Positions 11,133 through 64,000 of a stretch of DNA of 64,000 nucleotides are shown piece by piece (position 1 is the stretch's first letter; every line of letters starts with the position of its first letter). The stretch covers positions 14,788 to 78,787 of the forward strand of contig CAZWVU010000004.1 of assembly GCA_964637575.1 (NCBI GenBank). Reading direction: 5' to 3'. The notes beneath the pieces are model-generated. The model was given only the letters and a program-made list of their open reading frames with translations. It had not been told where the DNA came from and did not search any database. The position numbers were made by a program, and so were the translations under genes. The DNA comes from an uncultured Candidatus Saccharibacteria bacterium. GTDB lineage: Bacteria > Patescibacteriota > Minisyncoccia > UBA6257 > WO2-44-18.

Positions 11133-11760
11133 AAAGCAAAAGTATTACGCGTGCTACATTCCGGAGACGCAAAAAAAGCTGGTGACGGATATATGGGCGG
11201 AATGCGAATCCCTCGTGAAGGGTGTGCGAGGGGCGCGGTACAAGTCGTTTGATTCCAAAGAAGAAGCCGAGCGGTGGCTGAGGGCCGGTGCCAGTTACGG
11301 GCCGCCGAAAGCGCGCGTGAAAAAAGAGAAGCAAAAAGCGCTGGAGCCGGGAATTTATTTTGACGCGGGGACGGGGAGAGGCGACGGCGTGGAGATCAGC
11401 GTCACTGATGAGAAGGGCAAGAATCTGCTGGATAAAATCCTTCTGCCGGAAGAGCTGAATAAATACGGCAAGCATCTGCTGGAAAGCGAAGAGGCGACGA
11501 ATAATTTTGGCGAACTGCTGGCCTGCCGGTACGCGCTGATGATCGCGATAGACAGCGATATCAAAAAAGTTTTCGGCGACAGCAAGCTCGTCATCGATTA
11601 CTGGTCCAAAGGATTCATCAAAAAGAAGGACGTGGCGCCGGAGACGGTGAAACTGGCGGAAGAAGTGATGAAAATCCGCAACGAATTTGAACTCGCCGGC
11701 GGCTCCCTCGGCCGTGTTTCCGGGGATATTAATCCGGCTGACCTGGGGTTTCATCGCTAG
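11116..11760 (+). CDS. rnhA: Ribonuclease H1 with N-terminal hybrid-binding (caulimovirus VI-like) domain
   Basis: HBD: KYYACY...ECESLVKGVRGARYKSFDSKEEAERWL. RNase H core: YFDAGTGRGDG, TNNFGELLACRYAL, GDSKLVIDYW. Confidence 0.8.
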   Translation: MASKAKKQKYYACYIPETQKKLVTDIWAECESLVKGVRGARYKSFDSKEEAERWLRAGASYGPPKARVKKEKQKALEPGIYFDAGTGRGDGVEISVTDEKGKNLLDKILLPEELNKYGKHLLESEEATNNFGELLACRYALMIAIDSDIKKVFGDSKLVIDYWSKGFIKKKDVAPETVKLAEEVMKIRNEFELAGGSLGRVSGDINPADLGFHR

Positions 11761-11764
11761 GACT

Positions 11765-11894
11765 GTTGGAAAGTTCCCCGGGAACCGGGTGTCCGTCGCG
11801 CTCCTGCGGCGCGACGGCACCACTAAAAACTCGGCAATTTGCAGGGCGCCAAGCCAAATTGCCTCCGTTATTTTCCCTACGGGAACTTTCCAAC
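11765..11894 (+). ncRNA. Copy 1 of an unassigned structured RNA-like element (GGGAACCGGGUGUCC family)
   Basis: 14-bp closing stem (GTTGGAAAGTTCCC / GGGAACTTTCCAAC). Conserved core with two internal hairpins. Covariation with copies at 28057, 41705 and 26268 (minus). Confidence 0.6.
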
Positions 11895-12181
11895 ATCCTT
11901 TTCCATCAATCCCGAACATATTAGGTTGCTGGCGAGGAGAAAGAGGGTGGGCTTGAGCGGCGCGGTTGGAAATAAAAAACCCGGTCAACATTTCTGTTGC
12001 CGGGTTTTGGATACTAACCTTTGCAAATGGAGCTGACGCGGATGATGCTTCCGGGAGCCGGCTTTCCGACGGTTTCCCGAAGGAGCTTGAAAAGGCCGAT
12101 ACGGAGTTTGGTCTTCGCCTTCTTCTCCAGAACCTTTTCAACCCGGACTCGGACGTGCCATTTGATGTGCATGCGGTCTCC

Positions 12182-12679
12182 TCATTTCAAAACTTTCACG
12201 TCCAGCCACTTCACACCGAAGCGACGGGCTTCGGAGTGCGACGCCATACGGACATCGATGTGAGTGATGCCGCGCTTGGCGTCCTGGCGCATCGCGCCGC
12301 CGGTGTCGTCCACCTCGCGGAGGCCGACGCCGGGGATGTCCAGGCGGGTGTGATAGGGGAGCAGCTTTGGATCCGCTGCCACCCCGTCATACCGGCGCCC
12401 GTCCTTGCCGGTCGCCGTTCTCGCGAACTTCGACCAGCTGCCGCAGCAGATGTCGCAGGTGCAGTATGCCGTTACCAGCATTCTTACCGCGACATGTTCC
12501 GCGCGGTGTTCCGGAGCTTCCGGAGCAGCGATTTTTCCCGCCGCTGGAGTCGCCGATTGCGCCACCAGGCGCGGAGCCACTTCCATGCGTTGAATCTCAT
12601 GGTTCGCTTCCCTCCGTGCAACCCAGATGACCCCTGCTCCCATCATCAACACCAGGCCGATGACAGGAGAAGTCTTCAC
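12182..12679 (-). CDS. 3D-domain (MltA/YocH-like) cell-wall-associated protein
   Basis: N-terminal TM. CTCDICCGSW...TATG...VAADP...VDDTGGAM is a 3D domain. Confidence 0.7.
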   Translation of the reverse strand: MKTSPVIGLVLMMGAGVIWVARREANHEIQRMEVAPRLVAQSATPAAGKIAAPEAPEHRAEHVAVRMLVTAYCTCDICCGSWSKFARTATGKDGRRYDGVAADPKLLPYHTRLDIPGVGLREVDDTGGAMRQDAKRGITHIDVRMASHSEARRFGVKWLDVKVLK

Positions 12680-13199: not shown

Positions 13200-13558
13200 G
13201 CAGGTGGCTGGCAATCCAGACAACCGCGCTCCGGTCCGCAAGGATCACGGGTGAGGAAAGTCGGAGCTCCCGTCCCGGTCGCAAGACCGAAGACAAAGGT
13301 AGCAGTTAACAACTGCCGGCAGTAATGCAGAGGTGCGAACAGTGACGTCCCGAAGCGAAAGCTGAAGGAGAGCCCCATCCCAACGTAGAAGGCTCAACCC
13401 GATTATAGGGATACAAGATCGGGGTGAAACGGCTAAATTCCTTACCGGGTGCAAGGCCGTACTCCGCAAGGAGAGTGCCGCTCGAGGTCTGCCGCGAGGT
13501 AGATCCCAGATAAATGGTTGTCCACGACAAAACTCCGCTTACGGATTGCCAGCCTTCA
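13200..13558 (+). ncRNA. rnpB: RNase P RNA (bacterial type A)
   Basis: P1 pairing GGCTGGCAATCC (13206-13217) with GGATTGCCAGCC (13543-13554). GAGGAAAGTCGGAGCTCC and GGGGTGAAACGG conserved blocks. Followed by a terminator. Confidence 0.85.
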
Positions 13559-13561
13559 AAA

Positions 13562-13583
13562 CCCCCGATTCGTCGGGGTTTTT
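13562..13583 (+). terminator. Rho-independent terminator after rnpB
   Basis: CCCCGA-TTCG-TCGGGG hairpin followed by TTTTT. Confidence 0.7.
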
Positions 13584-13656
13584 GATTTCAGATGGGGGAT
13601 TGACAAATAATAATAAATTTGTCATAGTTTCAGCAGTTCATATGGGAGGAGGCGAT

Positions 13657-15434: not shown

Positions 15435-16506
15435 AACCTCGTTTCTTTCCGGCATCTTCACCCGCGTGCCGATCGAGGATCAGGTGCTTTTGGCGCGCCA
15501 CCTTGCCGTGATGGCGAAGGCCGGGCTGCCGCTCCTGGAAAGCGTGAAGATGATCCAGAAGGAGACGAAGAGCAAGAGTCTGAAAAAAATCCTTGATCAG
15601 GTGGTGGTGGACGTGAGCAACGGCCAGTTTCTTTCCGCGAGCCTGGAAAAGCATAAAAACGTGTTCGGCAATCTTTTCATCAACATTATCCGGGTGGGCG
15701 AGTCGGCGGGCATTCTCGCGGAAAACCTTAATTACCTCGCGGACGAGCTGAAAAAGAAGCGGGAACTGAAGAAAAAAGTGACCGGCGCGCTTATTTATCC
15801 GGCGGTGATTTTTGTGGCCACCTTCGGCATCACCGGATTGCTCACCGTGTTTATCTTCCCGAAAATCCTGCCGATTTTTAAAAGTCTGAACGTCGAATTA
15901 CCGATTACCACGCGGATCCTGATCTGGCTGAGCAACGCGCTCACGAATTACGGCCTGTATCTGATCCTGGGCCTACTGGCATTGCTTCTCGGAATTTATG
16001 GCATCTCGCTGATCCAGAAAGTCCGCTATTTTCTGCACTGGGTATTGCTGAAGCTTCCCATTTTCGGCAACATTTCCCGCAGCGTCAACCTGGCTAATGC
16101 CAGCCGCACGCTCGGCCTCACGCTCAAAAGCGGCGTCCGGGTGGTGGAGGCGGCGACGATCACCGCCGAGTCCCTCACCAACCTTGTCTACCAGCGGGAA
16201 TTACTGAAGGCGGCGGATCTGGTTCAGCGGGGAGAAGCGCTCGGACCGATTCTGGAAAAGCACCCCAAACTTTTTCCCTCGATTGTCACGCAGATGGTCG
16301 CGGTGGGCGAGGCGTCCGGCAATCTAAGCGAAACGCTGCTGTATCTTTCCGACTTCTACGAAGGCGAGGTGAATGAAATTACCAAAAATCTTTCCAACGT
16401 GCTTGAGCCGATTCTGATGGTAACGATGGGCATCGTGGTGGGATTTGTCGCGATTTCCATCATTACGCCGATTTATGAAATCACTTCAAGCATCAGCCCG
16501 CGCTAA
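15427..16506 (+). CDS. pilC: Type IV pilus inner-membrane platform protein PilC/GspF
   Basis: Two GspF repeats. TM segments. Overlaps the pilB stop by 8 nt. Confidence 0.85.
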   Translation: MNKTSFLSGIFTRVPIEDQVLLARHLAVMAKAGLPLLESVKMIQKETKSKSLKKILDQVVVDVSNGQFLSASLEKHKNVFGNLFINIIRVGESAGILAENLNYLADELKKKRELKKKVTGALIYPAVIFVATFGITGLLTVFIFPKILPIFKSLNVELPITTRILIWLSNALTNYGLYLILGLLALLLGIYGISLIQKVRYFLHWVLLKLPIFGNISRSVNLANASRTLGLTLKSGVRVVEAATITAESLTNLVYQRELLKAADLVQRGEALGPILEKHPKLFPSIVTQMVAVGEASGNLSETLLYLSDFYEGEVNEITKNLSNVLEPILMVTMGIVVGFVAISIITPIYEITSSISPR

Positions 16507-54990: not shown

Positions 54991-55062
54991 GCCCTCGTCG
55001 TTCAATGGACAGGACACAAGATTGCGGATCTTGTAATGTTGGTTCGATTCCAACCGAGGGCA
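54991..55062 (+). tRNA. tRNA-Arg with anticodon GCG (by my manual fold)
   Basis: Acceptor GCCCTCG/CGAGGGC. D arm GTTC/GGAC. Anticodon stem CAAGA/TCTTG with loop TTGCGGA. T arm GTTGG-TTCGATT-CCAAC. 72 nt. Confidence 0.6.
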
Positions 55063-55078
55063 CAATAAAAAGGAGCCC

Positions 55079-55996: not shown

Positions 55997-56845
55997 TTAT
56001 TTCAACTGCAGGTTCTGAAGCCGCTTGATGCGCTCTTCAATCGGCGGATGAGTGGAGAAGAGCTGGAGCAGGATGGATGGCTTGAACGGATTGACGATAA
56101 AAAGATGGGCGGCCGCTTCCTGCCGCGGCTGGCCGGAGAGCGGGTACATTCTGGAATACTGACCCAGCTTCGCGAGCGCGCTCGCGAGTCCGTTGGGATC
56201 GCCGAGGGTTGTGGCGCCGGTTTCGTCGGCGAGGTATTCGCGTGAACGGGAAATCGCGAGATGGAGGAGTGTTGCGATGATCGGCGTAAGCACTACCAGC
56301 AGGATCGCGCCGATCGGGTTGCCGCGGCGATTGCGGTCACCGGAGCCGCCGAAGATCATCCCGTAGTAGGCGAAATGGGCGACATAGGAAAGCGTGCCGG
56401 CGAGGAGTGCGGCAATGCTGGAGATCAGGATATCGCGGTTTTCAATATGGGAAAGCTCATGGGCGAGCACGCCTTCGAGTTCCCGCTCATCAAGAAGCTG
56501 GAGGATGGAGGGAGACACGGCGACTGCCGCGTGCTGTTTGTTCCGGCCGGTGGCAAAGGCATTCGGCACCGGGAGATTTACTATATACAGCCTCGGCATG
56601 GGAATATTCATTTTTCCGGCAATGCGGGCGACAATCGCGCGCAGTTCCGGGTGGACTTCTTCCGGCATCGGCTGCGCCCGGTACATCGCGAGCACGAATT
56701 TGTCCGAAAACCAGTAGCTGGCAAAGTTCATAGCCGCCGAAATTACCAGCGCGTATACCACCCCCTGCTGGCCGCCGAAGTAATAGCCGATGGCGAGTAC
56801 CAGGCCGGTTAAAATTGACAAAAATAAGAAAGTCTTGAATCGCAT
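55997..56845 (-). CDS. htpX: Heat-shock protease HtpX (M48)
   Basis: HELSH zinc motif and N-terminal TM helices. 282 aa. Confidence 0.85.
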   Translation of the reverse strand: MRFKTFLFLSILTGLVLAIGYYFGGQQGVVYALVISAAMNFASYWFSDKFVLAMYRAQPMPEEVHPELRAIVARIAGKMNIPMPRLYIVNLPVPNAFATGRNKQHAAVAVSPSILQLLDERELEGVLAHELSHIENRDILISSIAALLAGTLSYVAHFAYYGMIFGGSGDRNRRGNPIGAILLVVLTPIIATLLHLAISRSREYLADETGATTLGDPNGLASALAKLGQYSRMYPLSGQPRQEAAAHLFIVNPFKPSILLQLFSTHPPIEERIKRLQNLQLK

Positions 56846-59060: not shown

Positions 59061-59135
59061 GGTGCCTATAGTTTAGTGGTAAAACACCGCTCTGTGGCAG
59101 CGGATTCGAGGGTTCGATTCCCTCTAGGCACCCCA
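59061..59135 (+). tRNA. tRNA-His (GTG) with encoded G-1 and CCA
   Basis: G-1 pairs with C73. Acceptor GTGCCTA/TAGGCAC. Anticodon loop CTGTGGC. T arm GAGGG-TTCGATT-CCCTC. Confidence 0.85.
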
Positions 59136-60803
59136 GACGGTATCTAATATAACCGCAGAAGGTTCGTTAGATATCATCACAGGAATCTCGGCATTACGTC
59201 GGGATTTTTGTGTTTTAGGGGCGACTAAGGCTTTTGATTTACCAGCGATCACTGGTGTGAACTCCACCGCCATGTCAGTCACGATCCGTGGTTTCTGGCA
59301 CTCTTTGTATTTCTCAGTGAAGATCAGACCTTCGGCTTGCATCAAGGCTCTTATAATCGGGCTTGGTATGACCGTCACCACTTTCTTATCCGTCACCTCA
59401 AACCGTTCCCAGTAAAGGCCTAGGAATAGTCGCTTCATTTCGTCCGGAGCTTTCATGTATGCCTCGTATGCGTTTCTCACAAAGAGCAGGATGTCTTGGA
59501 GCTCATCAATCCGCATATTAAGCTTCTTATCTTGGGCGTAGAGTTCGTCCTGTATGCTCTCGACCTGTTCTTTTATTTTCACTTTGATTCGAGTGAAGTC
59601 ATCATCTGAAATCAATCCACCGAATAATTTCTCCTCGGCAGTGTCACGCTTCTTTTCAAGTATCATCTTTTGCGTATTTAGTCCTTTCTTATCTTTATTT
59701 ATGACTTCCTTCCGACCGCTGTATATTTTCTCAATCTTGGCGACCATTCGTCCCACAAATGTCGGAGTGAATTCAATCAGTTTGAAAAGGTCAGCGATCT
59801 GCTGTTCCAAATCCCAGACTTCCACATATTTGTCCGAGCATTTGATCTGATCGCCGGAACGGTTGCAATGATAGTAAGATTTATTTTTCTTTGGGTGATG
59901 TTCGGCTGTGTATCTTTGTCCGCAGACGGCGCAGTAGGTCAGACCTCGCAGTATGAAGTTAAACTTTTGCCTACGACAGGCATAGCGGTTATGTTCGGCC
60001 ATGACCAGCTGGGTGCGTTCCCATATTTCTTTTGTGATGAGTGGTTTGTGTTTACCAACACCCACCAGTCCTCGCCAACGCATCTCCCCGTAGTAAAACT
60101 GATTCTTAAGTATCTCAATCATCTTGCTGTGAGCTAGTCGCTTACCGGCATGAGTCCTGAACCCTTTCTTATACAAAGCATCACGGACTTCGTAGACTGA
60201 ATAATCTCCAGTCACATACATGTTGAATGCTTCCTGGATAAGCGGCGCACGTTCTTCGTCTACAACAATGATCCTCTTTTTCTCATCGCTTGGATCACCG
60301 GCATTCAAGTAGCCGGAAGCCACACCTGTCGGCCACCAGCCATCTCGGAATTTCTGTTCAAGGCTCTTCAAAGTTTTTCTCGATGTGATTTGCGACTGGA
60401 GTTGGTTCACGCCAGCTATCACTAAGTCCATAAAGTTTCCTTCCGGAGAGTCAGTTATGCCGGGTTGCGATACGGAAAACAATTCAACCTCATGTTTTTT
60501 GAGGATCGCTTTGATTTGCATATGGTCGAGGGCATTTCTCGCCAGTCGGTCGGTGTCTTGAATAAATACTGCGCGGATAGCTTTATCATCTTGGACTCGA
60601 AGCAACATGTCTTGGAGCCCGGGACGATTCATATTGGTGGCGGATCGTCCTGGGTCTTCGAAGACTCCTTCGTTTGCCAGTTTGTATTTGTTGCTTTCCT
60701 CGATCGCTCGTTTACAGAGTTTGAGCTGTGTGGTGAGGGAATGGTGGCCGTCCTCGGCCTGTTCTTCAGTCGAGACTCGGCAGTAGATTAATGCATGTTC
60801 CAT
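59124..60803 (-). CDS. Large serine recombinase (resolvase N-domain, recombinase domain, zinc ribbon, coiled coil)
   Basis: LIYCRVSTEEQ catalytic Ser motif. CAVCGQRY...HCNRS zinc ribbon. 559 aa. Its last 4 codons overlap the tRNA-His 3' end. Confidence 0.85.
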   Translation of the reverse strand: MEHALIYCRVSTEEQAEDGHHSLTTQLKLCKRAIEESNKYKLANEGVFEDPGRSATNMNRPGLQDMLLRVQDDKAIRAVFIQDTDRLARNALDHMQIKAILKKHEVELFSVSQPGITDSPEGNFMDLVIAGVNQLQSQITSRKTLKSLEQKFRDGWWPTGVASGYLNAGDPSDEKKRIIVVDEERAPLIQEAFNMYVTGDYSVYEVRDALYKKGFRTHAGKRLAHSKMIEILKNQFYYGEMRWRGLVGVGKHKPLITKEIWERTQLVMAEHNRYACRRQKFNFILRGLTYCAVCGQRYTAEHHPKKNKSYYHCNRSGDQIKCSDKYVEVWDLEQQIADLFKLIEFTPTFVGRMVAKIEKIYSGRKEVINKDKKGLNTQKMILEKKRDTAEEKLFGGLISDDDFTRIKVKIKEQVESIQDELYAQDKKLNMRIDELQDILLFVRNAYEAYMKAPDEMKRLFLGLYWERFEVTDKKVVTVIPSPIIRALMQAEGLIFTEKYKECQKPRIVTDMAVEFTPVIAGKSKALVAPKTQKSRRNAEIPVMISNEPSAVILDTVWGA

Positions 60804-61100
60804 AGTATTTTCATATTAATTTTGATTAAGTTTTTGTAAGAGACCTTTCACGAACACCCTATACTAATTCGCTCGACACGCTAAGCTCTGTTGCCCACAA
60901 TCGCAACATACACCGCCCCAGTCATAAATTTTTCTGGAAATTGCTGTTTTGTGCCTATTTGGTTGGGTTTTACCGGGTTTTGTTGGGTTTATCTTTTTCA
61001 TTTTTGGTGTTATTTAGTGTTAGTTAGTGTGAGTTGGTGTAAGTCATAATTTTCGCCTTTTTGCTCAAAATGTTGCCGTTAGTTGCCGATTGTTGCTGAT
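60804..61100. repeat. Iteron-like short direct repeats (GTTGGGTTTT x2; TAGTGT/TTAGTGT x3; GTTGCCG(A/T)T x3) upstream of the rep-like gene
   Basis: Direct inspection shows clustered 6-10-bp direct repeats in a non-coding AT-rich stretch. Confidence 0.6.
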
Positions 61101-61898
61101 TTAGCCACTTTCACCGGCTATTGATAGAAGGGAGTTAAAATACGCACCTTTGTTTTTGATCGTTCCGGACGGCATTTGTTTCAATTTCTCATAGGCATTT
61201 TCTATTCTGGCCAGTCCATGAGTCTTGAGAGCTGAAAGCATAAAGTTCATATCCGGCTCCTCGAGATATCGAGCAATCTCTAAACATCTTTCTTCCTCAA
61301 ATGTTTTAGGATTGAAACTTCTTACCACACAGCGATTCGATCGATTGTTTTTATTTTCTTTTTCGTTATCGTTCTTCTGACTTCTGCCGAGTGAACTATC
61401 GGAAGTGAAAGAAAACCTTGCTACCAGCTTCTTCTTCTCGCTTTCCAACTTCTGCGAAATGTCATCGACTTCTGCCGGTGCTTCTGCTGGTGTTTGCTCT
61501 GGAGTAGTATCATCACTTCTGCCAGACTTCTGTTCAAAGTGATGTTCAATGTACTTAAATGTGCCGTCAGATAAGGGATAATTGCCGATATCCACATTGA
61601 ATGAACTTCTGCGACCTTGTTGTCTAGCAAACCATACCCACCTCTTCCGCTTTAGCTCGAGCATAATTTTATTCACCCTGTTCTTGTCATATTTTTCTTT
61701 GAAATCTTTTGAGAGTCCGGCATAACTTACATGAGCTCTTCCAGATCGGGGATTGGCAGTGAGCCAAAGCCACACCAAAATGGCATATTCCTCAAACTTC
61801 AAGTGACCGTCGATAAGGGCGGTTTTAATACTCCGTGGGAGTTTTACATAATCATTATTGTCTATTTTGAATGGCAGATTTTCCATGTTCATATTCAT
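61101..61898 (-). CDS. Hypothetical element protein (possible replication initiator)
   Basis: 265 aa. Basic/aromatic N-domain, acidic linker, C-terminal helical domain. Adjacent to the iteron-like repeats. Confidence 0.35.
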   Translation of the reverse strand: MNMNMENLPFKIDNNDYVKLPRSIKTALIDGHLKFEEYAILVWLWLTANPRSGRAHVSYAGLSKDFKEKYDKNRVNKIMLELKRKRWVWFARQQGRRSSFNVDIGNYPLSDGTFKYIEHHFEQKSGRSDDTTPEQTPAEAPAEVDDISQKLESEKKKLVARFSFTSDSSLGRSQKNDNEKENKNNRSNRCVVRSFNPKTFEEERCLEIARYLEEPDMNFMLSALKTHGLARIENAYEKLKQMPSGTIKNKGAYFNSLLSIAGESG

Positions 61899-61912
61899 TC
61901 GATTTGACCGAC

Positions 61913-62176
61913 TTAATCCATTGCATCGTTATACATGAGCGATTTAAGTTCCTTGATCGCCGAGACAAATTCTTTGGCATTCACTTCGACCAAGCCCGCA
62001 AAGAAAGCGCTTACCAGTTGGGGACGATCTGGCTCATCGGGGAAAATAAAACGAAACCGGCGTGAGTCGGCTTTGTTTATACCAAGCAACCTATATCCCT
62101 TAGCCACGAGAAAGGCGGCCACGTAGAAGTCGCTTGTTATAAAATTATTGCTGTCCAGTTGATTTCTCATTTTCAT
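61913..62176 (-). CDS. Hypothetical small element protein
   Basis: 87-aa ORF. Confidence 0.35.
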   Translation of the reverse strand: MKMRNQLDSNNFITSDFYVAAFLVAKGYRLLGINKADSRRFRFIFPDEPDRPQLVSAFFAGLVEVNAKEFVSAIKELKSLMYNDAMD

Positions 62177-62401
62177 TCTTTTTAGCTTTTTCTTTTTCTA
62201 AATATTGATGATCCAAAAGACGGACGATTAAGTCGGCTAGTCTGTCCATGAAAATTTCCTCCATCTGTTCGATAGTGAGGGTAGGGATTTTCTTTGTTGG
62301 CACCGGCTTTGGCATATTGTTTGCCAGTCCGCAAATAAAAAGCAGACTGTTTGTTCCAGTCTGTGCGCTCGCCTGTGATTCACCTTTGACTCACCAAAGT
62401 C

Positions 62402-63058
62402 TCACTTTTGTTCGTAGTCAATCCGGACCCGACCGGTACGCCAGCTTATAAAATTACTGATGCCGAAAGCATCTTTGATCCTTTTGTTAACGGCAATCTT
62501 GGCGTCATAAACGCTTCGCTTCGTGTCTTTTGCCCAGTCTGCCATATCCACGATGTCAGTTTCAGTTACCGGAGTGCCAAACGGAAGTGCGAATAAGACT
62601 TTGCAGAGAAAATACTGATTAGTGTTTATTGGGACCGGGCAAACCTTACTTCCCATAGTTATATTGCCGGTTTTCTCGTTAAATCTGATCTTGGTATCGA
62701 TTGGCGCTTCTTCTTGCAGTGCCGGCCTATTTTTAAGTTTGAAATAATAATTGTTGAGCATTGACCTGCTCGGTTTGGAAATTACAAAATCGTCACCATC
62801 CAGCTTGAAGCTAGAAACAATCTTTTTCTTTTTCAGCTCGGCAAGGACGGCTTTCTGATCGGAAATATCAAAAGTAGAGACAGGGTAATTAAAGTAGACC
62901 TTGGCAGGGAGTTTATGCGTGACATCAGTTACGGACTCAATGCTCCCCAGCAACGTCTGAATAAAGGCTAGTTTTGGATACTCATTTTTCATATTCATTT
63001 GTGAAATGGAGCCAGTTTCTTCAAAAACCAGTGAATGGGAGCTATTTTCCAGCTCCAT
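62402..63058 (-). CDS. Hypothetical element protein
   Basis: 218-aa ORF in the AT-rich region. Confidence 0.35.
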   Translation of the reverse strand: MELENSSHSLVFEETGSISQMNMKNEYPKLAFIQTLLGSIESVTDVTHKLPAKVYFNYPVSTFDISDQKAVLAELKKKKIVSSFKLDGDDFVISKPSRSMLNNYYFKLKNRPALQEEAPIDTKIRFNEKTGNITMGSKVCPVPINTNQYFLCKVLFALPFGTPVTETDIVDMADWAKDTKRSVYDAKIAVNKRIKDAFGISNFISWRTGRVRIDYEQK

Positions 63059-63204
63059 TCACCACTTTTTCTTACTACACAGCGTAATTGATGTAGTAAA
63101 AGTATTCCAAACCACAAAGTCATTATGACAAAATATGCCATCTTTGACAACGAAAATCTGAAGCGGTAAAATACAAATAAGTAATTTTATCGGGTACGAC
63201 TTTT

Positions 63205-63399
63205 ATGAATTCCAACATCGAGAAACTTTTCAGTATTGAGGAAGCCGCTAAAATTCTAAGGGTCAGTGGTCGATCTGTTACTCGTTATATTGAATCCGGA
63301 AAGCTTAAAGCATCCAAGATTGGAGTATGGCGCATCAAAGAATCTGATTTAAACGCTTTCTTGGAGGAGACAAGTAATGTTAAGTCGAAGAAAAAGTAA
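63205..63399 (+). CDS. Excisionase-family / MerR-like HTH DNA-binding protein
   Basis: LFSIEEAAKILRVSGRSVTRYIESGKLKASKIG matches the Xis/AlpA-type HTH. 64 aa. Confidence 0.6.
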   Translation: MNSNIEKLFSIEEAAKILRVSGRSVTRYIESGKLKASKIGVWRIKESDLNAFLEETSNVKSKKK

Positions 63400-63407
63400 A
63401 AAAGATT

Positions 63408-64000
63408 ATGACCACAAAACAAGCAATCCAAGACATTCAAAAGACTTTCGATATTAATGCCATCTTTGCTCATAAGGTATTTTTACTGGCTGACAAAACG
63501 AATCTCCTTGAGGATGCCGCTCGGATTATTGCTGAAAAACCAAAGCCATTTGTTAAATGGGTTGGTGGTAAGCGACAGCTACTCGCACAGTTTCGAAGAT
63601 TGAATCTCTATCCACCGGAAAAATTTGATATTAGGACAGGAAGATACTTCGAGCCTTTTGTTGGAGGTGGTGCCGTATTCTTTGATCTACTCCCAGAGAA
63701 AGGTTTTCTCTCTGATTTAAATAAAGAACTCGTTACTACTTATAACGTTATAAAAAATGGCGTTGAAGGGTTGATCGCTTCTTTGAAGAAGCATAAAACA
63801 GACAAAGAATATTTTTTAAACATACGTGCAAAGGACTCCAAATCCCTTAGTGACCTTGATGTTGCATCTCGCTTTATCTTTTTGAACCGCACCTGCTTCA
63901 ATGGTTTGTACAGAGTAAATAGTAAAGGAGGTTTCAATGTACCCTATGGTAAATATGCTAACCCACTTATTTGTGATGAGAGTAATTTGAGAAAGGTATC
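63408..64000 (+). CDS. DNA adenine methyltransferase (Dam-like, partial at window end)
   Basis: KWVGGKRQL, FVGGGAVFFD (FxGxG) and NRTCFNGLYRVN motifs. No adjacent restriction gene visible. Confidence 0.75.
   Translation, partial: MTTKQAIQDIQKTFDINAIFAHKVFLLADKTNLLEDAARIIAEKPKPFVKWVGGKRQLLAQFRRLNLYPPEKFDIRTGRYFEPFVGGGAVFFDLLPEKGFLSDLNKELVTTYNVIKNGVEGLIASLKKHKTDKEYFLNIRAKDSKSLSDLDVASRFIFLNRTCFNGLYRVNSKGGFNVPYGKYANPLICDESNLRKV

Follow-up and report, generated by a model that had tools for sequence, protein, structure and literature searches.

What is the AT-rich DNA that begins at the end of a tRNA-His gene in an uncultured Candidatus Saccharibacteria bacterium, and how could it have been placed there with the body of the tRNA left intact? 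The question is raised by a 64,000-nt stretch of contig CAZWVU010000004.1 (assembly GCA_964637575.1), referred to throughout, at its full length, as the window. Within it the guanine-plus-cytosine (GC) content falls from 0.550 over bases 1-59061 to 0.422 over bases 59136-64000, and it falls again to 0.326 in the gene for Avs4, which lies past the window. An initial annotation, made from the letters of the window, had marked the shift directly after tRNA-His and had read what follows as an integrated mobile element with its far end outside the window, the first gene of which encodes a 559-aa large serine recombinase (LSR) with the motif YCRVSTEEQ and a zinc ribbon. All of this is borne out, the shift by base composition, the recombinase by Pfam and the integration by an empty-site allele and dozens of relatives. 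From 59134 onwards, what the window contains is very likely the left part of an LSR-integrated defence island of about 12-13 kb, situated at tRNA-His in a Patescibacteria-like host.

The evidence for insertion comes from populations of the same organism. With the HtpX-like protease gene of the host (55997-56845) as bait, the product of which is closest, among named sequences, to Patescibacteria proteins (about 69% identity), three Logan contigs of this organism were obtained. One of these, L142 (SRR8931202), follows the window with 0 mismatches over 3893 nt plus tRNA-His as far as 59133 and diverges from 59134. Its sequence reads ...CTAGGC ACCC AATAAAATTGTAAATCACC... where the window has ...CTAGGC ACCC CAGACGGTATCTAATATAACC..., and 72 nt further on a GC-rich (0.557) host gene begins; a homologue search with the partial host open reading frame (ORF) downstream of the empty site gave no match. 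Judged by this alignment, L142 represents the unoccupied attB allele of the same organism. The exact match followed by divergence at 59134 therefore identifies the element as a polymorphic insertion, and L142 and the window together display the presence/absence polymorphism that marks an integrative element. The assembly graphs agree to the base. Unitig L141 (SRR8931230) stops at 59133, the LSR-bearing unitigs L001 and L002 begin exactly 30 nt ahead of 59134, and L011 and L012 do likewise in another host. From these de Bruijn forks at the junction base, taken with L142, it follows that occupied and empty alleles coexist in these populations, with SRR8931202 empty, SRR8931233 and SRR8931234 occupied and the 59133 fork present in SRR8931230, all within one study series. 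A second fork, in which unitig L140 (SRR8931233) ends at window position 59093, lies within tRNA-His 40 nt upstream of the att fork and is probably due to another tRNA-His variant of the community with a common 5' half.

Where within the tRNA gene does the exchange take place? When attB (L142), attL (window), attR (L091 and L052) and the P-P' junctions of relatives are compared, the only block common to all is ACCC, or GGGT on the other strand, and a core of 4 bp is as expected for a serine recombinase. In relative L059 the 2:71 pair is C-G and base 71 of attL follows the host, and therefore exchange lies 3' of position 71; with attB and attL diverging after C74, the crossover is therefore predicted to fall within C72-C74. 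The proposed CTG-ACCC-CAG symmetry of attP makes CC at 72-73 the most likely crossover dinucleotide. Strand exchange at this point of the core would leave the tRNA body intact and replace the trailer, with the encoded CCA no more than incidental. Comparison of the two alleles shows that the body of the mature tRNA-His is never interrupted on insertion and that only the trailer changes, from the native CACCC-AA (no encoded CCA) to CACCC-CA (encoded CCA) with the element. The proposal that the element rebuilt the tRNA 3' end was therefore overstated, the insertion falling within positions 72-74 and leaving the body untouched, although the trailer is indeed replaced. In L017 the tRNA gene ends ...CACCCAG, and an encoded CCA is therefore not an obligatory product of integration. 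The same locus carries, at 11657-11690, a P-arm variant with GTACTGGGT in place of GTCTGGGGT, which gives V-L-G rather than V-W-G.

The element side of the junction is coding sequence and, by prediction, a binding site as well. Across 53 unique junctions the final 24 nt of the LSR gene, core included, show 97% identity. Their third codon positions are 93% identical as against 81% upstream, and immediately past the junction identity drops to 65%; such conservation reads as the signature of coding sequence superimposed on a recombinase-binding site, the P arm. The outer arms of attB seen so far are A/T-rich trailers, namely AATAAAATTG in L142, together with AAAAATAAAA and ATAAAAAAAA.

The enzyme that would use these sites has the architecture of a serine integrase. 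Pfam recognises Resolvase PF00239 (1.3e-25, residues 4-155, with YCRVSTEEQ present), Recombinase PF07508 (9.6e-15, 183-270) and Zn_ribbon_recom PF13408 (8.3e-10, 284-339), and the match to the PHROG 95 integrase reaches 8e-81, while the NCBIfam models for CcrB, CcrC and XisF give weak matches, far below their cut-offs. The features by which serine integrases were defined here, a catalytic domain, a recombinase domain with zinc ribbon and a short att identity, were all found. Residues 340-470 are charged and helix-like by eye only. The C-terminus bears a tail of about 75 aa that is peculiar to the family. Identity to any LSR in phage or plasmid collections is 28% or less.

The end of the gene is supplied by the host. 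ARAGORN calls tRNA-His(gtg) at 59062-59135 (+), with base 59061 as an encoded G-1, and the reverse complement of 59124-59135 is TGG GGT GCC TAG (W-G-A-stop), antisense to the tRNA acceptor stem, discriminator and CCA. An overlap of the two genes had been annotated from the start and is real, the same arrangement at 51 junctions of relatives showing that it is not due to chance; the count of four codons plus stop has to be reduced to three codons (W-G-A) plus stop. The integrated recombinase of the window ends in ...VILDTVWG-A*. Across the family the stop is set by the antisense of the host tRNA, with TAG met immediately in the window and TAA, in L008 and L010, eight codons further on, and read-through into tRNA antisense extends for up to 35 codons (P0001). 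Two longer homologues, P0001 (593 aa) and P0016 (577 aa), were considered as attP forms and rejected, as both are integrated and read tRNA antisense.

How general is this arrangement? At E<=1e-30 there are 624 LSR homologues, the named ones mostly from Patescibacteria or the wider candidate phyla radiation (CPR), and loci of the family were gathered from the contexts of close homologues, 77 metagenome loci and one genome locus (L091). The LSR, the 218-aa protein p218 and the helix-turn-helix (HTH) protein of the window itself occur only on short Logan contigs; the best metagenome match to the LSR is 98% identical and belongs to a different host, and the best genome match to Avs4 is 84-85% identical. 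The junction sequence TTAGATACCGT(C/T)TGGGGT was found at 65 junctions, 51 of which continue into a convergent tRNA-His(GTG); three leave the contig within tRNA-like sequence and 11 continue into something else. The 51 tRNA-His genes fall into 44 distinct sequences, for which the median pairwise identity is 0.61, and in the acceptor and T arms they follow the host and not the LSR. The family as a whole targets tRNA-His. No relative was detected among viral contigs when IMG/VR was scanned with the LSR, and no description of this LSR/tRNA-His element family was found in the literature searched. Islands of this kind constitute a widespread and apparently undescribed family in Patescibacteria that, to judge from their junctions, inserts at the discriminator/CCA boundary.

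The family also supplies the other half of attP. A generic left-junction search in the 77 loci returned only L052 and L091, most elements exceeding the 10-kb flank. The P' arm of L091 recurs in L052, where it forms the left end of the element, and P' arms of the L091 type are fused directly to LSR 3' ends, as P-P', in tandem arrays, of which L069/L043 is one. L064/L088, L071 and L031 have P' arms of other types. Such arrays, whether tandem or nested, contain truncated 3' fragments of the LSR gene that lead into an attP-like P-P' junction and lie upstream of a complete element, which suggests that accretion or decay has occurred repeatedly at this one site. Arrays of this sort join L088/L089 with L064/L016 (one contig, junctions 14.7 kb apart) and L069 with L043 (one contig, about 20.6 kb), and a further one is seen in L076/L077. 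In L031/L047 the P'-like sequence that follows the junction is duplicated 1.85 kb apart at 11671-11753 and 13515-13597, with 88% identity and no tRNA within 10 kb.

What becomes of the recombinase frame when P and P' are joined? In this configuration it runs on for 42 codons in the L091/L052/L069 type (QALSGLITVLEDKEYMVTLREKMNNIKKVAKFYNYDLLLAKK*), for 14 codons in L064/L088 and for 11-32 codons in other types, the C-terminal extension differing between subfamilies. Of the codon differences between the L091 and L069 extensions, 9 are synonymous and 3 non-synonymous in the LSR frame, with ratios of 1:11 and 1:9 in the other frames, and upstream of its first internal ATG 8 of 10 differences are synonymous. 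Codons ahead of that ATG can be translated only when fused to the LSR, yet they differ mostly at synonymous positions, which argues that the excised form is a longer recombinase. From this codon pattern, the excised form very probably does encode a longer protein and integration alters the LSR C-terminus; integration would part the LSR frame from its element-encoded C-terminal extension and leave it to end on a tRNA-antisense stop. A possible, if rather doubtful, development of this idea is a built-in switch between two isoforms, one excised or incoming and carrying the extension (42 aa in the L091/L069 type, its codons under purifying selection), the other integrated and ending in tRNA antisense. 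Such a switch could act, for example, in stability, directionality or expression, rendering the recombinase integration-proficient on arrival and quiescent once integrated.

The description of the element as a defence island depends on DNA past the window. The Logan contig L003/L005 (9268 nt, SRR8931234), to which p218 and the HTH protein led, overlaps the window by 2146 nt at 100% identity, runs to the equivalent of 71122 and so adds 7.1 kb. L005 encodes a D12 methyltransferase (318 aa), a DpnII endonuclease, an N6_N4 methyltransferase, Avs4 (1607 aa) and a 79-aa ORF with what look like two transmembrane segments. The three contiguous genes match D12 PF02086 (1.7e-62), DpnII PF04556 (7e-94) and N6_N4 PF01555 (3e-21), and by these matches the D12 enzyme, the endonuclease and the DpnA-like N6_N4 enzyme make up a predicted DpnII-type restriction-modification (R-M) system, for which the family implies GATC as the probable specificity. 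The Dam-like methylase cut by the window edge had been called an orphan, a description that cannot be kept now that its DpnII-type partners are seen to adjoin it. Avs4 matches PADLOC PDLC02169 with 2260.6 bits over its full length (residues 1-1607 on profile positions 1-1570), and in Pfam it yields only weak AAA matches at 207-288. The cargo of this copy consists of the HTH_17 protein, the DpnII-type, presumably GATC-specific, R-M system with its two methylases and endonuclease, Avs4 and the small two-transmembrane protein, and includes two putative anti-phage systems, the R-M system and the STAND NTPase Avs4. Counts of GATC were made on both sides of the junction. There are 394 sites in the host DNA of window positions 1-59061 where base composition predicts about 226, and 39 in the element where 41 are expected; the host excess is found despite the GATC restriction system of the element.

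Other members of the family carry other genes. L008 has a DrmD-like SNF2 helicase, a type III methylase and PDC-S13; L009 has AbiEi/AbiEii, a DpnI-like methyl-directed enzyme and HEPN_AbiV; L010 has HinfI R-M; and L013 has ars genes with an HTH/M78 pair. By their annotation these cargoes are likewise defensive or adaptive, and they vary over a conserved backbone. Avs4 genes of 73-85% identity occur in Vogelbacteria, Magasanikbacteria, Staskawiczbacteria and other Patescibacteria (L108, L093, L095, L122), less than 10 kb from unrelated LSRs with 25-28% identity to that of the window, and Avs4 may travel on several LSR platforms.

The far boundary is visible in a sister element, L091, in which gene order is identical and the LSR and Avs4 are 88% and 84% identical to those described here. 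The element is present in full, 12.9 kb long and with both of its junctions. Its attL lies at tRNA-His (2473-2547) and its attR, at 15469-15472, reads ...CACTGTTATAAGACCCGACAGTGCCTG ACCC AAAAATAAAAATCCCCTCTCAACGGGGATTTTT (also given as ...GACAGTGCCTG-ACCC-AAAAATAAAAATCCCC...), after which host-level GC resumes. As this attR lies 663 nt past Avs4, the element of the window should end a few hundred bases past L005, for a total of about 12-13 kb. The att repeat that had been anticipated at the far boundary takes a reduced form in the sister, which shares only ACCC, and the attR of the window element itself was not reached; an AACCC near the end of L005 was tried as attR and rejected, as it does not fit the attR pattern. 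The contig that holds L091 (CAZEKG010000003.1) is titled 'uncultured Gammaproteobacteria', yet it has a CPR-type element and a tRNA-Arg(tct)-tRNA-His pair as in Patescibacteria loci, and this could be either a binning or label error or a cross-phylum transfer between episymbiont and host.

The features of the element that fall within the window are collected in Table 1, where gene presence is counted over the 43 relative loci with enough upstream sequence.

Table 1. Features at the tRNA-His end of the window and in the element beyond it.
Feature	Position	Strand	Remarks
tRNA-His(GTG)	59061..59135	+	Host target gene; B' half of attL; encoded G-1 at 59061
LSR (integrase), 559 aa	59124..60803	-	Last 3 codons and stop from antisense tRNA; Pfam, PHROG 95
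att core ACCC	59130..59133	+	tRNA positions A71-C74; sole bases common to attB and attP
P arm of attL (CAGACGGTATCTAATATAACCGCA)	59134..59157	+	Predicted recombinase-binding half-site of the element right end; equals last LSR codons
Control region, non-coding	60804..61100		Three 10-bp-phased repeat sets and promoter-like TTGTCG...TAGTATAGG; upstream of LSR gene
p265, 265 aa (annotated as rep-like)	61101..61898	-	In 37/43 relatives
DUF5659 protein, 87 aa	61913..62176	-	Pfam PF18903 5e-12; 37/43 relatives
p56	62145..62315	-	34/43 relatives, 77-98% identity
p218	62402..63058	-	33/43 relatives
HTH_17/excisionase-family protein, 64 aa	63205..63399	+	First cargo-operon gene
D12-class (Dam/DpnM-like) N6-adenine methyltransferase	63408..64000	+	Cut by window edge; MethyltransfD12 1.5e-34

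The island consists of a conserved backbone (p218, p56, the DUF5659 protein, p265, the control region and the LSR) to which swappable cargo is added, and the backbone genes are kept in 33-37 of the 43 loci. The protein p265 has 337 cluster representatives in a library of 1.84 billion proteins and no significant match in Pfam, NCBIfam, PHROGs, PADLOC or PDB, whether searched as a single sequence or with profiles; weak hints of a winged HTH come from HTH_36 and HTH_46 in two to three members, no Rep family or structure is matched, and the AF2 single-sequence model is poor (pLDDT 48). The label rep-like is therefore not one that a family or structure match upholds. For p218 the same databases and search modes returned no family or PDB match and the AF2 single-sequence model is again poor (pLDDT 39); translation probably starts near 62998, for a protein of about 198 aa, as relatives begin MNMKNE.... 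No family match for p56 was found in Pfam, PADLOC, PHROGs or NCBIfam.

The control region is 87% identical by alignment column across eight relatives, and the phased repeats that TRF reports within it, at 60958-61101, are CGGCAAC x3, AACAC x5 and AAACCC x3. Of the iteron-like repeats first described here, short phased repeats do exist, and their iteron nature finds no support; from its position and make-up the region may serve as a set of operators or as an origin. A 45-aa ORF at 60864-61001 (-) overlaps the conserved repeats. Relatives of other subfamilies, 18 of the 43, have a sigma70_r4-like ORF between the p265 and LSR genes, about 131 aa long (112-146 aa), and in its place the window and its closest relatives have a non-coding stretch of about 300 nt. 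The HTH_17 protein (Pfam HTH_17 7e-16, TIGR01764 excise 5e-10, PHROG excisionase families) had been annotated as excisionase-type. The domain is present; as its gene occurs in only 7 of the 43 relatives, the protein is no core factor of excision. Its candidate roles here are those of a recombination directionality factor or of a regulator of the R-M genes. Elsewhere in the host part of the window, at 54991-55063, there is a tRNA-Arg with a GCG anticodon, which is uncommon in bacteria, where the usual choice is ACG/ICG, and which may be a Patescibacteria trait.

Could the element nevertheless be something other than the defence island proposed? The alternative that survives best, itself rather unlikely, is that of a phage satellite or hitch-hiker, similar to a phage-inducible chromosomal island (PICI) or to an integrative and mobilisable element (IME), in which the backbone, repeat region included, would be a module for regulation and replication that answers to a helper phage or conjugative element, and the defence genes would occupy an accessory slot. 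The small size of about 13 kb accords with this, as does the integrase at one end beside a divergent regulatory region with phased repeats. The conserved backbone of unassigned function (p218, p56, DUF5659, p265 and the sigma-like protein) also speaks for it, the variable defensive cargo is of the kind carried by known satellites and islands, and the presence of one LSR family over 44 different tRNA-His hosts implies efficient horizontal transfer. Against it, Pfam, PHROGs and NCBIfam hold no homologue of a capsid, small terminase, primase, relaxase or packaging-redirection protein for this element, no member of the family is in IMG/VR and no helper is known. The satellite alternative bears only on the mode of transfer, that is on the presumed route from cell to cell, and is compatible with the LSR integration mechanism. 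As to conjugation, no relaxase, oriT, type IV secretion system or coupling protein was matched by Pfam or NCBIfam in the ORFs seen, and the few hundred bases at the far end that remain unseen could not hold the conjugation genes of an IME or of an integrative and conjugative element.

A prophage with its structural genes past the window was the other half of the first description, which left prophage and integrative mobile element side by side. An integrase, an excisionase-type HTH gene and AT-rich composition beside a tRNA would suit it, yet the 7.1 kb past the window hold only R-M genes, Avs4 and the 79-aa ORF, and the complete 12.9-kb sister has no phage structural genes and no room for them. 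Profile searches for such genes, which the initial annotation had called for, found no capsid, portal, terminase, tail or lysis gene among the ORFs of the element in the window and on L005 (Pfam, PHROGs, PADLOC); PHROGs matched only integrase and excisionase families, and viral contigs gave no match. A prophage is accordingly very improbable, and what stands of that description is the mobile element, as a defence island. Even less probable is an island in the style of tyrosine integrases, in which attP would hold a long copy of the tRNA 3' end, the flanking repeats would span tens of bases and the LSR would be a passenger. Such islands do typically lie at tRNA 3' ends (PMC7192596), but no tyrosine recombinase (Phage_integrase domain) is present in the element, the identity block is the 4 bp of ACCC and not a tRNA fragment, no repeat of the tRNA 3' end occurs in L005 or in the 10-kb flanks of relatives, and in every relative the end of the LSR gene itself forms part of the junction. 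That the region is fixed, non-mobile lineage content, or that the overlap of ORF and tRNA is a coincidence of gene calling, has nothing in its favour beyond the view of a single window and is next to impossible in the face of presence and absence among samples of one series and of overlap at 51 junctions.

The LSR-integrated defence island remains the preferred reading, and several observations have to be set against it. L005 ends 297 nt past Avs4 without an att-like sequence, and the attR of the window element has never been seen. Neither an excised circle nor recombination activity was seen, P-P' junctions being found only in chromosomal tandem arrays. Avs4 and DpnII are putative, assigned by profile match only, and attB shows no obvious dyad symmetry, its outer half lying in a variable A/T-rich trailer. 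Targeting, moreover, is not absolute, as the element of L052 lies 1 kb from an apparently unoccupied tRNA-His site. At that locus (337-351 and 11453-12561) the tRNA-His gene keeps an unoccupied-looking attB (TTTTTTTTAT-GGGT-GCC...), and the element sits between the look-alikes GAGTATTTTTTTAT-GGGT-P' and P-GGGT-GAGAGTCAAAATG...; the placement may reflect a secondary site or a later rearrangement.

How does this island relate to known systems? With the large serine integrases (Bxb1, phiC31, A118 and TP901-1, CcrB/CcrC of SCCmec, XisF) the recombinase has in common the three-domain architecture and the Ser nucleophile, a very short attP/attB identity (4 bp), consistent with a 2-bp crossover, and an integrase gene at the edge of the element. 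It differs from them in sequence, with 28% identity at most to any LSR of the phage or plasmid collections; it targets a tRNA gene, has its attP inside its own 3' coding end, bears the family-specific tail of about 75 aa and is found in Patescibacteria hosts. Filamentous phages of the phiRSM type reportedly integrate at a tRNA-Ser gene by means of a small resolvase-like serine recombinase. In both cases a serine-family enzyme would act at a tRNA 3' end, the one a small enzyme of an inovirus, the other an LSR of a non-viral island.

In SSV1-type integrases the gene is split by integration. The likeness to the present case lies in an attP within coding sequence and in integrated and excised forms that have different C-termini. 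It extends to mycobacteriophage BPs, in which attP lies inside the repressor gene and immunity depends on integration (PMC4557955). What differs from both is that here the serine integrase itself is affected, and only at its extreme tail, with catalytic and DNA-binding domains intact.

The tRNA islands of tyrosine integrases (P4-like elements, PICIs and 'Islander' integrative genetic elements) resemble the island in their insertion at a tRNA 3' end without inactivation, the integrase at the tRNA-proximal junction, foreign composition and accessory or defence cargo (PMC7192596). The present element departs from them in its serine recombinase and in the lack of a displaced tRNA fragment or long repeat, only the bases past C74 being replaced. 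A conserved mobility backbone with exchangeable R-M, Avs and Abi cargo is also the plan of defence islands on integrated mobile elements (PMC10201445), including pipolins (PMC11551731). The differences from these are a backbone of p218, p56, DUF5659, p265 and LSR, another host phylum and a fixed tRNA-His target.

The finding has significance at several levels. It describes a clade of LSRs at a tRNA gene, with over 50 independent junctions and an unoccupied allele as documentation, in a niche that the literature gives to tyrosine integrases. It also indicates how an enzyme with a 2-bp crossover could use a tRNA gene without a copy of the tRNA, through a predicted cut at the discriminator/CCA boundary. 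The location of attP within the integrase gene offers a testable idea of how serine integrases could sense their own state of integration; the isoform switch, if true, would be the integrase-level counterpart of the integration-dependent immunity of BPs, and is undescribed for serine integrases in the literature searched. Finally, little is known of the mobilome and immunity of Patescibacteria, which are ultrasmall episymbionts. For these organisms the island family would represent a mobile platform that moves R-M, Avs4, AbiE and DISARM-like genes among them, and the near-invariant 24-bp P arm, together with the universally conserved end of tRNA-His, makes the LSR/att pair a candidate tool for the genetics of CPR bacteria.

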